From: Escherichia phage vB_EQ1
Sequence record: PQ516281
DNA: 64,000 bases
Reading direction: 5' to 3' (one strand)
Shown piece by piece: positions 43,021 to 49,570 of the stretch (position 1 is its first letter; each line of letters opens with the position of its first letter). Position numbers and translations under genes: made by a program. The notes below the pieces were generated by a model that worked only from the letters and a program-made list of their open reading frames with translations, ran no database searches and was not told where the DNA came from.

Positions 43021-43569
43021 TTAACGAGCCCATTTGATGATTTCTGTAATCAAATCATTACGTTCGCTTGCATTAAATCCTATAACTTTGTTAGCACCAT
43101 CATGATTAAGTAATTGATACGTTTGGATTTTGTTATGAATTGCAAACTCTTCAAAATGTGAAATGACTGTATTAAAACCGAATGAAGACAAAGTAATAAG
43201 GTCGTCTTCAAAACTTTCAGTCATTTCGTTACGTGTTAAAATAATTGTGAACACATCATGGTTTTGGCAAAGACGAATATAATCCTGTTCATAAACGTCA
43301 AGAACCGAATCCGCATCTTGTCGAATACGTCCATAAACCCAGTTACTAATATATCCACGGTCTAACAGATAAATCTTAGTAGGGTCTAAATAATTCAACA
43401 TCGTTTCGAAACAGCCAACTTCATTTCGAGACTTAACATCGAAACGTCCATCAACTGTTCGTTTAGGGAAATCAATCTTTACATATCTTTCACTAATTTC
43501 CATTATGTCATTAATGAAAGTTGTTTTACCAGCATTATCTGGGCCATCTACTAAAATAATTTTAGCCAT
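43021..43569 (-). CDS. P-loop kinase of the NMP-kinase fold (182 aa)
   Basis: Walker A GPDNAGKTT at residues 9-17; small single-domain kinase size; substrate unknown. Confidence 0.6.
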   Translation of the reverse strand: MAKIILVDGPDNAGKTTFINDIMEISERYVKIDFPKRTVDGRFDVKSRNEVGCFETMLNYLDPTKIYLLDRGYISNWVYGRIRQDADSVLDVYEQDYIRLCQNHDVFTIILTRNEMTESFEDDLITLSSFGFNTVISHFEEFAIHNKIQTYQLLNHDGANKVIGFNASERNDLITEIIKWAR

Positions 43570-43570
43570 T

Positions 43571-44470
43571 TTATTCCTCGATTACGACATCTTCGTATTT
43601 AGGTATATTATACGGCGAAGAAATTAAAGCGTTAAAGTAGATGAACTCACCAAGACCTGGATGGAATACTTCTTCAGGATTTTCGAAATATTGAATCTTC
43701 GGACGTCCTTTAAGAATTTGATAGTACTCAGTTTTAGTTGGATTAAAAATTCGAATCAGCGCTTCTTCAGGATACTTATTTCTGTCGAAACTATTATTTG
43801 GATCAGTTATATAAAGCGGTTGACCTAATTGAATTGCGCATTCAACAACTTGTTCAAAACGATAGCATGGGTCACTAATTCGAAATGGATGAAAAATACC
43901 ATCTAGATGAATAGGAGCCAAATCACCTACAAGACGCTGCATGACGGAAGGACGTATAACTTTCTGCGTTACGATAATCTTATTACCATCTGCACCTGCG
44001 TTAACCAGCACTTCTTTTTGACGTTCATTCAACACAGTAGTTTGAAGTGAACGATTAACCGACAACATGTCGGTTTTTAAGAATTCGTCAATATAAAAAC
44101 GTGGTTTATTAGGGTCTGCAGTGATATTGAAATTGAATTCTACGTCAAAAGCGCCATCATATCCAGTGATATCTGTGATTAGAAAATCACAATCATAATA
44201 AGCAATTAATGAATCAACCACAAATTCATTTTCAGACCAGAAATATTTACGAGTGTTATACGCGTTATCTTTATACCATAATGGAACAAACTTAAATTCT
44301 GGGAAAAGACGTTCACATTCTTTAATATCAGATGCATTACGTGGATATGTAATCACATCGCCTGGATTAGCACGGTGCAAATGAAGTTGGAAGTTGCCAT
44401 CCTTAAGGATAGCATACTGTCCAGTTTCATAAGACCGCATACTCAAAATAGGTACGCGGAAAATAGCCAT
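43571..44470 (-). CDS. Hypothetical protein (299 aa) at the beta-gt position; candidate transferase
   Basis: ORF with no recognisable motif by eye; occupies the slot of T4 beta-gt but does not resemble it. Confidence 0.5.
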   Translation of the reverse strand: MAIFRVPILSMRSYETGQYAILKDGNFQLHLHRANPGDVITYPRNASDIKECERLFPEFKFVPLWYKDNAYNTRKYFWSENEFVVDSLIAYYDCDFLITDITGYDGAFDVEFNFNITADPNKPRFYIDEFLKTDMLSVNRSLQTTVLNERQKEVLVNAGADGNKIIVTQKVIRPSVMQRLVGDLAPIHLDGIFHPFRISDPCYRFEQVVECAIQLGQPLYITDPNNSFDRNKYPEEALIRIFNPTKTEYYQILKGRPKIQYFENPEEVFHPGLGEFIYFNALISSPYNIPKYEDVVIEE

Positions 44471-45186
44471 TAGTCAAGAAACCCTTTAACATAATCAAAA
44501 TCACGTTCAAACACATGGGCACTTACCATGGTATGAGTATAATCACCAACTTCTACACCACATTCGTTAGCGATATAATGAAGTAATTTTCCTTGGAGAT
44601 AAAAATCCAACTGCATAACAACAGCACAGTTCTGAGAACGCATATGACAGTGGGTATAAAGCTTACCATCGCGAATATAATAAGTCACTGAGTCAGTACA
44701 TGGATATTCAAGCGTTTCGTCCGAATCAAGCAAAGCCTGATCAGAACTTTCTAGAATTTGGAACACAACTCTTCGAGAGTTAGGCTTCTCTTTAAGTTCT
44801 TTTAGAAGAGCCGGTAATTGGGCCGCAATGCGAGGACCGTAGAAAGTGTTGAAGTTTGCAGGCAAAGCGTCTGATTTAGGTTTAGAAATAAATTTAGCGA
44901 CATTAGGATATGCCTTAAACGCTTCTTCTGCATCAGTACCACCAGAAATCATAAACTTCCAGAAGTCTTCGGCATATTCATAAGAGATGCGGTTAATACG
45001 TGGGTCGGTCATTTTGAATGATGATGGAGTGTCAACAACTACTGTCATAGACCCAATTTCATTACAACGTCCAATACGAGAATCAGTTACGAATTCCGGG
45101 TTTTCTAAAATTTCACGATTGACTGCTTTAAATGCGGTTTGAAAATCTGCGGCTTTGATATATTTCATTGTGTTATGTTTTCCCAT
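44470..45186 (-). CDS. Thymidylate synthase-family pyrimidine hydroxymethylase (dCMP hydroxymethylase-like, divergent from T4 gp42; 238 aa)
   Basis: Active-site YPCTDSVTYYIRDGKLY, HMRSQN and ...ECGVEVGDYTHTMVSAHVF align with ThyA/dCMP-HMase (C-nucleophile, RS-D/N, EVGD, AH-Y/F); Asp 31 residues after the Cys matches the cytosine-specifying Asp179 of T4 dCMP-HMase. Confidence 0.65.
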   Translation of the reverse strand: MGKHNTMKYIKAADFQTAFKAVNREILENPEFVTDSRIGRCNEIGSMTVVVDTPSSFKMTDPRINRISYEYAEDFWKFMISGGTDAEEAFKAYPNVAKFISKPKSDALPANFNTFYGPRIAAQLPALLKELKEKPNSRRVVFQILESSDQALLDSDETLEYPCTDSVTYYIRDGKLYTHCHMRSQNCAVVMQLDFYLQGKLLHYIANECGVEVGDYTHTMVSAHVFERDFDYVKGFLD

Positions 45187-48753: not shown

Positions 48754-48794
48754 GTTGTGGTCCTCATTGGTAAGTAGGAGTATTGTACACTATT

Positions 48795-48938
48795 CTAGTT
48801 AAAGCATTCATACTTTGCTTGTAGTCCAATCATAATCCATCCAATTACAAGTGTTGGAATCATTACTGGAGCCGTTAAGCTCCAGTAGATAGTCATGACA
48901 AGCATCAATAGTAAAAGTCCTATTGTTATTGCTTTCAT
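48795..48938 (-). CDS. Tiny membrane peptide (47 aa) at the imm position
   Basis: Hand translation MKAITIGLLLLMLVMTIYWSLTAPVMIPTLVIGWIMIGLQAKYECFN; ATGA overlap with the SIS gene stop; below ORF-track cutoff. Confidence 0.45.
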   Translation of the reverse strand: MKAITIGLLLLMLVMTIYWSLTAPVMIPTLVIGWIMIGLQAKYECFN

Positions 48939-49570
48939 TGTTCGCCTCGTAACATGGCACCTAGTGCACCGCCAGGGTGGAACTTAAGGAAGTCATTAGA
49001 GGTAAATCCACGTTCAGACGAAAGGTTGATAGCAAACGTATCGATAAGCGCTAACAACAATGTAGTGGACATAGTCGGAGCCAGAGAATTCTCATCAACT
49101 TCTACCGCGATGCCTGTACAGAAAGAGTAATCAAAAAGGGCTTCGTATTCTTGTGGAATGTCTGGGTTACAATGCAACAGAATCTGTTTGACGTTCGGGC
49201 GAATCATTTTAAGATGCTTAGCCACGCCTATCATTTCTTCAGTTTTACCAGAACGACTAATATGAATCAACACATCATTAGGCGCAATAAATCCTGCATC
49301 ACCGTGAGAATAATGCCCAGTGTTCAAGTACATACTCGGGATACCGAGTGAAGCAAATGTCTCAGACGCTTTAGTTGCAATATTAGCATTCTTACCAACA
49401 CCTGTAATAATTACTCGGCTTTCATAATTACTAAGTCCAGGGCGTCGAAGAGTTTCTAGAATAGCATTATAACGAGCAGGGTTTTGACTAATTACTTTGG
49501 CCATAGCGGCCAAAGAAGAAGCTTGTTTTATGATTGCGTCAATAGCGATAGTAATAGGAGTAGTTTTCAT
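48935..49570 (-). CDS. SIS-domain sugar-phosphate isomerase (KdsD/GutQ arabinose-5-phosphate isomerase-like, SIS domain only; 211 aa)
   Basis: IITGVGKNANIATKASETFASLGIPSMYLNTGHYSHGDAGFIAPNDVLIHISRSGKTEE matches the SIS pattern G-x-G-K-S-x-x-I-x-x-K-x-A-x-T-F-A-S-x-G...H-G-D...I-S-x-S-G-x-T-x-E; no CBS domains. Confidence 0.65.
   Translation of the reverse strand: MKTTPITIAIDAIIKQASSLAAMAKVISQNPARYNAILETLRRPGLSNYESRVIITGVGKNANIATKASETFASLGIPSMYLNTGHYSHGDAGFIAPNDVLIHISRSGKTEEMIGVAKHLKMIRPNVKQILLHCNPDIPQEYEALFDYSFCTGIAVEVDENSLAPTMSTTLLLALIDTFAINLSSERGFTSNDFLKFHPGGALGAMLRGEQ

Follow-up and report, generated by a model that had tools for sequence, protein, structure and literature searches.

An RB69-type gene cluster, very probably for arabinosylated 5-hydroxycytosine DNA, and its U32-family protein as a candidate oxygen-independent hydroxylase

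We analysed a 64,000-nucleotide stretch of DNA from Escherichia phage vB_EQ1 (record PQ516281), here called the window, and in particular a cassette of nine minus-strand open reading frames (ORFs) at positions 43021-49570, flanked by uvsX (41750-42922) and gene 43 (49611-52322). Comparison with studied relatives indicates, with high confidence, that this region is a Mosigvirus (RB69-type phage) gene cluster for DNA carrying 5-arabinosyl-5-hydroxycytosine, with a base, a sugar and a transfer branch. The main value of this part of the work is a correction: the base is 5-hydroxycytosine (5hoC), not the 5-hydroxymethylcytosine (hmC) of an initial annotation made from the sequence alone. The new part concerns the sole gene of the cassette that is still open, which encodes a U32-family protein (gp50 in RB69). 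We slightly favour the idea that this protein hydroxylates pyrimidines at C5 with prephenate and without O2, as a reserve for the ThyA-like enzyme of the cassette or, in other phages, in its place. The features concerned are as follows, with functional names taken from the RB69 counterparts.

43021..43569, minus strand: Tmk-like nucleotide kinase, RB69 gp45 (182 residues; P-loop GPDNAGKT; phrog_761)
43571..44470, minus strand: DNA arabinosyltransferase 1, RB69 gp46:47 (299 residues; 98% identity to RB69; role from Table 1 of PMC13326640)
44470..45186, minus strand: 5-hydroxy-dCMP synthase, RB69 gp48 (238 residues; Pfam Thymidylat_synt 2.4e-15; 100% identity to gp48)
45228..45467, minus strand: 79-residue protein, RB69 gp49, in the slot filled by a chorismate mutase (CM) in most other genera
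45464..46624, minus strand: U32-family, putative Fe-S protein, RB69 gp50 (386 residues, 13 Cys; Pfam Peptidase_U32 7.3e-11)
46682..47083, minus strand: HAD-type phosphatase, RB69 gp51, AfhF-like (133 residues; NCBIfam TIGR01689, capsule-biosynthesis phosphatase, 6.9e-13; phrog_1238)
47068..48753, minus strand: bifunctional kinase/nucleotidyltransferase, RB69 gp52:53, AfhE-like (561 residues; NTP_transferase 8.8e-10, residues 3-99)
48795..48938, minus strand: 47-residue hydrophobic membrane peptide, RB69 gp54 (Kyte-Doolittle means up to 2.0; phrog_3610)
48935..49570, minus strand: D-arabinose-5-phosphate isomerase, RB69 gp55 (211 residues, SIS domain only; Pfam SIS 5.7e-10)
34429..34947, minus strand: dCTPase, gene 56 homologue, RB69 gp28 (tblastn, 97% identity to RB69 gp28)
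21654..22751, minus strand: second arabinosyltransferase, homologue of RB69 gp3/ORF003c (tblastn, 99.2% identity over 366 residues to RB69 gp3)

The coordinates of the nine ORFs were confirmed, with intergenic gaps of -16 to +57 nucleotides; the initial annotation gave their number as eight, although its list had nine entries. The 6.5-kb block has 100% identity with Escherichia phage MRostami-2023e and 98.0% with RB69. A total of 151 phage records cover 80% or more of its length, and the best 40 of these have at least 97.7% identity over the block. This conservation, together with the assignment of every ORF to a PHROG family, excludes a chance pattern. Protein identity to the RB69 counterparts is 97-100%, except for gp49 (90%), and the cassette gene order is kept in 12 phage genomes of about ten genera. 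By these matches the window is that of a Mosigvirus and the block is RB69 gp45-gp55. Thus RB69, which had been used as an outside comparison, does show the expected synteny, with the same genes in the same order, but it is not a separate point of reference, since the window is itself RB69-type. The cassette likewise matches the 'Afh' cluster of phage HY126 in gene content, order and uvsX-to-gene 43 position, with nothing substantive different. Both the glycosyltransferase (GT) ORF (43571-44470, 299 residues) and the kinase/nucleotidyltransferase ORF (47068-48753, 561 residues) are intact here and split in the RB69 GenBank record (gp46/47 and gp52/53), which lends support to the published explanation of both splits as sequencing errors; RB69 ORF53_52 was already presented as one fused ORF by Thomas et al. 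2018 (PMC6024577).

The cassette is thus already published. The initial annotation was unsure whether it had been characterised; candidate genes appeared in 2018 and the biochemistry in 2025-2026. Its version was right in outline, and the route it drew from host ribulose-5-phosphate (Ru5P) through a nucleotide-activated arabinose to a glycosylated modified cytosine in phage DNA agrees with the published RB69 pathway. It was the base that had to be revised. Arabinose was found in RB69 DNA by Thomas et al. 2018 (PMC6024577), and the base was first reported as arabinosyl-hmC. By nuclear magnetic resonance (NMR) and mass spectrometry (MS), Lee et al. 2026 (PMC13326640) identified it instead as 5hoC with beta-D-Araf-3-alpha-D-Araf (Araf, arabinofuranose) ether-linked at C5, and the DNA of Mosigvirus NP was found to contain 5-ara-dC and 5-ara-ara-dC, the earlier hmC assignment being called erroneous (PMC13390438). 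RB69 gp48 converts deoxycytidine monophosphate (dCMP) to 5-hydroxy-dCMP, taking the oxygen from 18O2 and binding a flavin; it has dCMP-specifying substitutions of the N177D/L143E type, and together with a gp1-type deoxynucleoside monophosphate (dNMP) kinase it suffices to place 5-hydroxydeoxycytidine (5hodC) in E. coli DNA (PMC13326640).

The protein encoded at 44470-45186 shares 235 of its 238 residues with the crystallised chains 9iqc/9ir2/9iqu, and only 25% identity with T4 gp42. Judged by its identity with gp48, it is a ThyA-fold, flavin- and O2-dependent dCMP 5-hydroxylase. An entry as a hydroxymethylase would be inappropriate, because 5-hydroxy-dCMP is what the identical RB69 protein forms, using O2 and flavin. 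Its ThyA-family membership, as initially proposed, is borne out by the Pfam match; the hydroxymethylase label, hmC as the acceptor and the description of RB69 as an arabinosyl-hmC phage all give way to 5hoC and its ether-linked arabinose.

How the base branch would operate in this phage can be drawn from RB69, where the dCTPase (gp28) is counted in the pathway (PMC13326640, Table 1). The dCTPase (34429-34947) would remove dCTP and supply dCMP, which the ThyA-fold enzyme (44470-45186) would hydroxylate at C5 with flavin and O2. The 5-hydroxy-dCMP would then be raised to the triphosphate by a T4 gp1-type dNMP kinase and probably by the Tmk-like protein (43021-43569), and the polymerase would incorporate 5-hydroxy-dCTP in place of dCTP. 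The Tmk-like protein had been called a P-loop kinase, and profile searches place it in the thymidylate-kinase family (YorR 2axp, 1.2e-9; Tmk 1tmk, 6.6e-9). It is probably a 5-hydroxy-dNMP kinase, and it co-occurs with the GT plus U32 or the ThyA-like protein in nearly all loci.

This scheme shares its logic with the T4 hmC system (gp56, gp42, gp1 and the alpha- and beta-glucosyltransferases), in which dCTP destruction, C5 modification of dCMP by a ThyA-fold enzyme, phosphorylation and incorporation are followed by DNA glycosylation. It also shares its genomic position, with a GT gene adjoining the ThyA-fold gene. The two differ in the base, which is 5-hydroxymethylcytosine made via folate with no need for O2 in T4 and 5hoC made via flavin and O2 in RB69-type phages, and in the sugar donor, which is host UDP-glucose in T4 and phage-made UDP-arabinofuranose (UDP-Araf) in the RB69 type.

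In the sugar branch, profile searches placed the SIS, HAD and nucleotidyltransferase proteins in the families they had been assigned to. The SIS protein is 100% identical to RB69 gp55 and scores best with the arabinose-5-phosphate (Ara5P) isomerases (NCBIfam KpsF/GutQ 2.7e-32, KdsD 1.2e-30; phrog_5670, 'arabinose 5-phosphate isomerase', 3e-116). The 561-residue protein has NCBIfam matches to sugar-1-phosphate nucleotidylyltransferases (7e-14) in addition to its Pfam match, and weak kinase-fold matches at residues 308-409 (fructosamine kinase 0.0034, APH 0.032), so that its description as a fusion of an RmlA-type nucleotidyltransferase and an APH-fold kinase stands. The 133-residue HAD protein gave no match in the Pfam search, the TIGR01689 match coming from NCBIfam only. 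All three proteins are 98-100% identical to RB69, and in Thomas 2018 (PMC6024577) ORF055c and the fused ORF53_52c were proposed as UDP-arabinose genes within an eight-gene module between gene 43 and uvsX.

The steps of this branch are summarised in PMC13326640, which cites He 2026 and Mahler 2025 for them. By that account, gp55 converts Ru5P to Ara5P, the kinase domain of AfhE (gp52:53) converts Ara5P to arabinose-1,5-bisphosphate (Ara-1,5-P2), AfhF (the gp51 HAD protein) converts this to arabinose-1-phosphate (Ara-1-P), and the nucleotidyltransferase domain of gp52:53 joins Ara-1-P and UTP into UDP-Araf, both activities of gp52:53 having been reported for its HY126 homologue. In the window, the SIS isomerase (48935-49570) would accordingly draw on host Ru5P to give Ara5P, the C-terminal kinase domain of the 561-residue protein would form the 1,5-bisphosphate, the HAD phosphatase (46682-47083) would strip the 5-phosphate to leave Ara-1-P, and the N-terminal nucleotidyltransferase domain would yield UDP-Araf. 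The initial annotation had modelled the pathway on the trypanosomatid salvage of D-arabinose to GDP-D-arabinopyranose, with dephosphorylation followed by an anomeric kinase. The order in the same published account is the reverse, kinase and then HAD phosphatase. Of the donor it proposed, an NDP-D-arabinose, the arabinose is right, whereas the pyranose and GDP of the analogy are not, the published donor being UDP-Araf. The likeness to trypanosomatids is that there, too, a bifunctional kinase/pyrophosphorylase activates arabinose (an analogy, made with no homology comparison); step order, ring form (furanose here) and nucleotide (UDP here) differ.

Not all cassettes have this branch in full. Those of F48, Clarke_MM3, Pm5461, JS98 and Thanatos-2 keep the kinase/nucleotidyltransferase and HAD genes, with no SIS isomerase gene within the locus. 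Such phages may use host KdsD/GutQ or may make a different sugar; the Thanatos paper reported a pentose and discussed xylose.

For the transfer branch, gp46:47 and gp3 of RB69 are described as arabinosyltransferases (PMC13326640), a role given to gp3 also by Thomas 2018 (PMC6024577). The 299-residue ORF, initially listed as having no known function, is thus the counterpart of the first DNA arabinosyltransferase. Its product (43571-44470) would attach the initial arabinose to 5hoC within DNA, with the second attached by the gp3 homologue (21654-22751).

We weighed two other readings of the whole cassette. One keeps the initial view, with a divergent dCMP hydroxymethylase making hmC and a sugar route in the trypanosomatid order making an NDP-arabinopyranose that glycosylates it. 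We consider this very improbable. The ThyA-family membership of the 44470-45186 protein and the original arabinosyl-hmC report (PMC6024577) would fit it, and the SIS, HAD and kinase/nucleotidyltransferase domains are compatible with either step order. However, the NMR and MS data put Araf directly on the C5-O of cytosine and the 18O2 labelling and bound flavin mean hydroxylation (both PMC13326640), the hmC assignment has been termed erroneous (PMC13390438), Ara5P is phosphorylated before the phosphatase step in the account relayed by PMC13326640, and the identity to T4 gp42 is low. The other reading, to which we give still less credence, makes the product a heptose or an ulosonic-acid nucleotide sugar of the 3-deoxy-D-manno-octulosonate (KDO) type, with the SIS protein as GmhA/KdsD, the HAD protein as GmhB/KdsC and the nucleotidyltransferase as HddC/KdsB. 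The HAD protein is indeed labelled 'phosphoheptose isomerase' in RefSeq and PHROGs and is weakly similar to heptose-bisphosphate phosphatases (PMC13326640), and the nucleotidyltransferase has a weak NCBIfam match to HddC (9.5e-5). Yet the SIS protein scores far better with KpsF/GutQ/KdsD than with any heptose isomerase model, the cassette has no KdsA- or KdsB-like gene, and D-arabinose was identified in RB69 virion DNA by high-performance anion-exchange chromatography, gas chromatography/MS and NMR, with a pentose also in phage NP. The heptose or ulosonic-acid donor that the initial annotation had left open is thus disfavoured by both the SIS family scores and the published sugar analysis.

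Several points do weigh against our assignment of the cassette to arabinosyl-5hoC DNA. Its steps come from work on RB69 and HY126, where they were demonstrated or proposed, and would carry over to this phage through the 97-100% protein identity to RB69, and the results of He 2026 (Nat Chem Biol) and Mahler 2025 (Cell Host Microbe) come second-hand via PMC13326640. The substrate of the Tmk-like kinase is a prediction. A PDB sequence search with a 13-sequence GT profile gave no match, so the GT fold rests on published structure comparisons. Finally, any part that gp49, the 47-residue peptide or the U32 protein may play in the pathway is hypothetical.

The U32 protein is the 386-residue ORF that the initial annotation rightly called Cys-rich, with 13 cysteines by our count; its match to Peptidase_U32 (PF01136) scores 42.2 bits against a cutoff of 22.4 bits. 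An AlphaFold2 (AF2) model built with 30 homologues has a predicted local distance difference test score (pLDDT) of 90.1 and a predicted template modelling score of 0.89, and the top-ranking PDB structure for it is 5d88, a U32 protein with a TIM barrel; a PDB sequence search gave no match. Profile alignment (hhalign) to E. coli TrhP/RlhA/UbiU has 96% probability (E 3e-9), at 15-24% identity to the E. coli U32 proteins. Ten cysteines are invariant in 30 subfamily sequences (C158, C177, C192, C203, C209, C233, C340, C345, C349 and C352). In the alignment to the Fe-S motif, C203 and C209 match the canonical CX6C, C233 matches the final Cys, and the fourth ligand is putative; the resulting spacing over C192, C203, C209 and C233 is CX10CX5CX23C, compared to the canonical CX6CX15CX3C. 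The other invariant group, C340-x4-C345-x3-C349-x2-C352, lies at the end of the TIM barrel and resembles a radical-SAM (S-adenosylmethionine) motif, with a CX3CX2C string and an aromatic residue before the last Cys. This C-terminal cluster (residues 340-352) may bind a second Fe-S cluster.

U32 is also the most conserved cassette protein, with 79-89% identity across genera compared to 70-86% for the ThyA-like protein, 46-69% for the GT and 42-73% for the kinase/nucleotidyltransferase. An exhaustive profile search found 463 cluster representatives (50% identity level) of the subfamily at E<=1e-30 and 1,118 at E<=1e-10, and no distant members among 50,697 cultured-phage records.

RlhA, TrhP and UbiU/UbiV have in common with the phage protein the U32 domain, and conserved cysteines of the phage protein fall at their Fe-S motif; a C-terminal Cys cluster is found in RlhA as well. 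The group that RlhA makes is 5-hydroxycytosine itself (ho5C2501 in 23S rRNA); TrhP makes 5-hydroxyuridine (ho5U34) in tRNA, and UbiU/UbiV act in anaerobic ubiquinone synthesis. RlhA requires Cys residues in the U32 motif and in the C-terminal region, Fe-S cluster biogenesis and prephenate. The oxygen donor of UbiU/V is prephenate, and the CM domain of PheA restores their pathway. The phage proteins form a separate subfamily of about 360 residues, apparently phage-specific, and their substrate would be a deoxynucleotide or DNA rather than RNA or a quinone.

In facultative anaerobes, an O2-dependent enzyme and a U32/prephenate enzyme can be paired for one product, as with TrhO and TrhP for ho5U and UbiI/H/F and UbiU/V for ubiquinone (PMC6599085, PMC10990095). 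The phage cassette holds a U32 gene and a flavin/O2 hydroxylase gene, which lie about 280 bp apart with the 79-residue ORF alone between them. It differs from the host pairs in being virus-encoded, and the DNA modification and common product would be its own. We therefore hypothesize that U32 (45464-46624) makes the same 5-hydroxy-pyrimidine nucleotide, here from dCMP, without O2 and with oxygen from prephenate. Where the host is a facultative anaerobe, it would serve as a reserve for the O2-dependent hydroxylase and allow replication in the anoxic gut despite the dCTPase; where the host is a strict anaerobe, the phage would have no other hydroxylase. Phage CM and/or 3-deoxy-D-arabino-heptulosonate 7-phosphate (DAHP) synthase, encoded by many such phages, would raise the prephenate supply. 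Mosigviruses, which have no CM, would have to draw their prephenate from PheA and TyrA of the host, on which its own U32 enzymes also rely.

The gene context of U32 links it to prephenate supply. In 8/8 non-Mosigvirus phage genomes (Entb_45, KLB31, PM2, TG1, Pm5461, CBH8, F48 and Thanatos-2), a CM_2 chorismate mutase gene separates U32 from the cassette gene that follows, adjoining U32 directly or after one tiny ORF, with scores of 32.8-46.8 bits against a 27-bit cutoff. In Shewanella phage Thanatos-2 the U32-CM pair is at the far side of the cassette, and this joint displacement indicates that the two genes travel together. The phage CMs align to the CM 1ybz (E 4e-9) and keep the AroQ catalytic residues invariant (equivalents of R11, R28, K39, E52, S84 and Q88). 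CM was also found in 13 of 15 Straboviridae-type U32 loci of IMG/VR. For more distant loci, we scanned 7-10 kb on either side of U32 in each contig. DAHP-synthase/CM fusions, confirmed with Pfam, lie about 0.6 kb upstream of U32 in three of these contigs (L055, L058 and L059), the same pair of matches was seen in L056 in a local scan, CM abuts U32 in L061, and a DAHP synthase gene is directly downstream of U32 in L020. U32 is thus linked to CM or DAHP synthase in three separate architectures, and this matches the genetic dependence of RlhA, TrhP and UbiU/V on prephenate. We also considered whether the DAHP_synth_1 gene of L020 might encode an Ara5P-using KDO 8-phosphate synthase; this was ruled out by scores of 237 bits for DAHP synthase and 63 bits for KDO 8-phosphate synthase.

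Distant loci also show U32 apart from the ThyA-like enzyme. Among 25 IMG/VR loci with U32 proteins of 40-55% identity, just one has a ThyA-like gene within 10 kb on either side, while a gp46:47-like GT is present in 16 (abutting U32 in 6), a gp45-like kinase in 17 and the SIS and kinase/nucleotidyltransferase pair in 8. Ten further metagenome loci gave a similar picture: the GT is directly upstream of U32 in 7/10 and the kinase is present in 9/10, and a search for ThyA-like genes (E<=1) found them in 0/10. In one clade (L022-L026, DnaE 55-77% identical), a MazG/dUTPase_2-type NTP pyrophosphatase precedes the block, above the Pfam cutoff in L022, L024 and L025 and weaker in L023 and L026; this pyrophosphatase-kinase-GT-U32 module mirrors gp56-gp1-beta-gt-gp42 of T4. 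In other distant loci a dCMP deaminase or dUTPase/DCD gene is beside U32. This deoxynucleotide context points to a deoxynucleotide substrate.

Some of these loci have features of their own. Two DnaE-encoding phage contigs, one of 466 kb, have a dCMP deaminase gene directly upstream of U32 (L007 7447-9086, where the two overlap, and L019 6504-8083), with no GT detected nearby; the gene content suggests that some U32 members act on dUMP to give 5-hydroxy-dUMP. Unrelated uncultured phages encode a radical SAM/SPASM protein, either next to the kinase-GT-U32 block or close to U32 (L024 7972-9000, L025 7980-9011, L007 1-249 and L008 12160-13185), and it could be a maturase, a part of U32 electron transfer or an enzyme of a further modification step. 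L008 also encodes a second, divergent U32 paralogue (13224-14357) about 4 kb from the first, which recalls the UbiU/UbiV heterodimer. The lone distant locus with both U32 and ThyA-like genes (L046; IMG/VR 3300028591_000080, a 230-kb contig) also has GT, kinase and nucleotidyltransferase genes; the two genes thus occur together in this jumbo phage as well, which has no relation to Straboviridae.

As to hosts, the ThyA-like hydroxylase gave matches in 377 phage records, 57 of them under an Acinetobacter name and 22 under a Rhizobium name, and U32 in 221 phage records, the best 60 of which have at least 81.6% identity. The hosts named for U32 are Enterobacterales or Shewanella, with no match among phages of strict aerobes; seven organism name groups enter the U32 summary without a breakdown. 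The U32/CM slot is empty in Acinetobacter phage Konradin, where the HAD gene is followed directly by the ThyA-like gene. The polymerase of L022 has its nearest cultured relatives in phages of the gut obligate anaerobes Agathobaculum (53% identity) and Clostridium, with matches also to human and lemur faecal sequences; polymerase similarity gave no host assignment for L020 and L021. RB69 encodes NrdD/NrdG, and its lineage is therefore equipped for anaerobic dNTP synthesis. In general, phages of strict aerobes have the ThyA-like enzyme alone, most genera of facultative-anaerobe phages have both, and likely phages of strict anaerobes have U32 alone.

The alternative is that U32 has nothing to do with base hydroxylation and is instead a peptidase, a reductase or epimerase of the sugar branch, or an enzyme that tunes translation by hydroxylating tRNA or rRNA of the host. 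We regard this as unlikely, though a good deal less so than the rival readings of the whole cassette. Table 1 of PMC13326640 labels gp50 a 'sugar or heterocycle reductase', with no discussion in the text, and PMC13390438 (June 2026) lists an 'epimerase' in the cluster and describes the full pathway as uncharacterised; the family name itself derives from collagenase-like peptidases. One published account cites the RlhA and TrhP papers and does not remark that gp50 shares the U32 family, and our literature search, outside whose scope lay He 2026 and Mahler 2025, found no link of U32, prephenate or chorismate mutase to phage 5hoC. In aerobic E. coli, moreover, gp48 alone is enough for 5hodC (PMC13326640). 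If U32 belonged to the sugar branch, it should follow that branch; it does not, because it occurs in cassettes without SIS and in distant GT and kinase loci without sugar-activation genes. A protease or RNA-directed role fits poorly with the NTP pyrophosphatases, dCMP deaminase or dUTPase nearby. Against all three forms of the alternative stand the 24/25 distant loci in which U32 occurs without a ThyA-like gene, many with the GT and the Tmk-like kinase near, and the linkage to CM and DAHP synthase.

The hydroxylase proposal for U32 has its own difficulties, some of which also lend weight to the alternative. In vitro hydroxylation has yet to be demonstrated for any U32 enzyme. Mosigviruses, including the one in this window, have lost CM, and its slot holds the unrelated gp49; Clarke_MM3-type Klebsiella phages carry U32 with no small ORF beside it. 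The JS98-type phages of E. coli have the ThyA-like enzyme and no U32, which is thus not essential for every enteric phage. The correlation of U32 with host range is confounded by the shared ancestry of Straboviridae, and the inference of anaerobic hosts is based on one clade.

If the hydroxylase proposal is right, it would address a gap in the published pathway, in which the one phage 5hoC synthase so far known depends on O2, although these coliphages also encode an anaerobic ribonucleotide reductase and are presumed to multiply in the gut. Prephenate-dependent hydroxylation would extend from RNA and quinones to DNA precursors and to viruses, and the shikimate-pathway genes of phages (chorismate mutase and DAHP synthase) would be auxiliary genes for DNA modification. 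With a small soluble substrate (dCMP), gp50 could be a tractable model for U32 hydroxylases. The proposal also predicts many uncultured gut phages with glycosylated 5-hydroxypyrimidine DNA and no ThyA-like enzyme.

The remaining small ORFs of the cassette are less readily placed. The 79-residue ORF (gp49) gave no match in Pfam and NCBIfam searches, and its AF2 model is poor (pLDDT 58.6). Its size and slot, those of the Kanagawavirus CM, raised the idea of a decayed chorismate mutase; this was ruled out by hhalign, which gave 0.1% probability against the phage CM family, and a CM hidden Markov model run over all frames of the window found nothing convincing. Homologues of gp49 occur in Mosigviruses; the only others are the tiny ORFs that separate U32 from CM in PM2 and TG1. 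Its identity within Mosigviruses is 78-94%, compared to at least 99% for U32, and some relatives have truncated variants of 47-58 residues. It may be a U32 accessory protein.

The 47-residue peptide had been described as a membrane peptide, and its Kyte-Doolittle profile confirms the hydrophobicity. It matches an unannotated ORF in the 42-imm intergenic region of T4 (57% over 30 residues, E 8e-11), and JS98 also has the peptide, next to imm. Because of these two matches, it is probably a small membrane peptide of the T4-type core, outside the sugar pathway. The initial annotation had taken the cassette to replace beta-gt, 42 and imm of T4. This does not hold for gene 42, whose slot has a ThyA-family gene of changed activity, nor for imm, which has moved: imm and imm.1 lie at 37990-38665 on the minus strand, upstream of gene 41, and the same relocation is seen in RB69.

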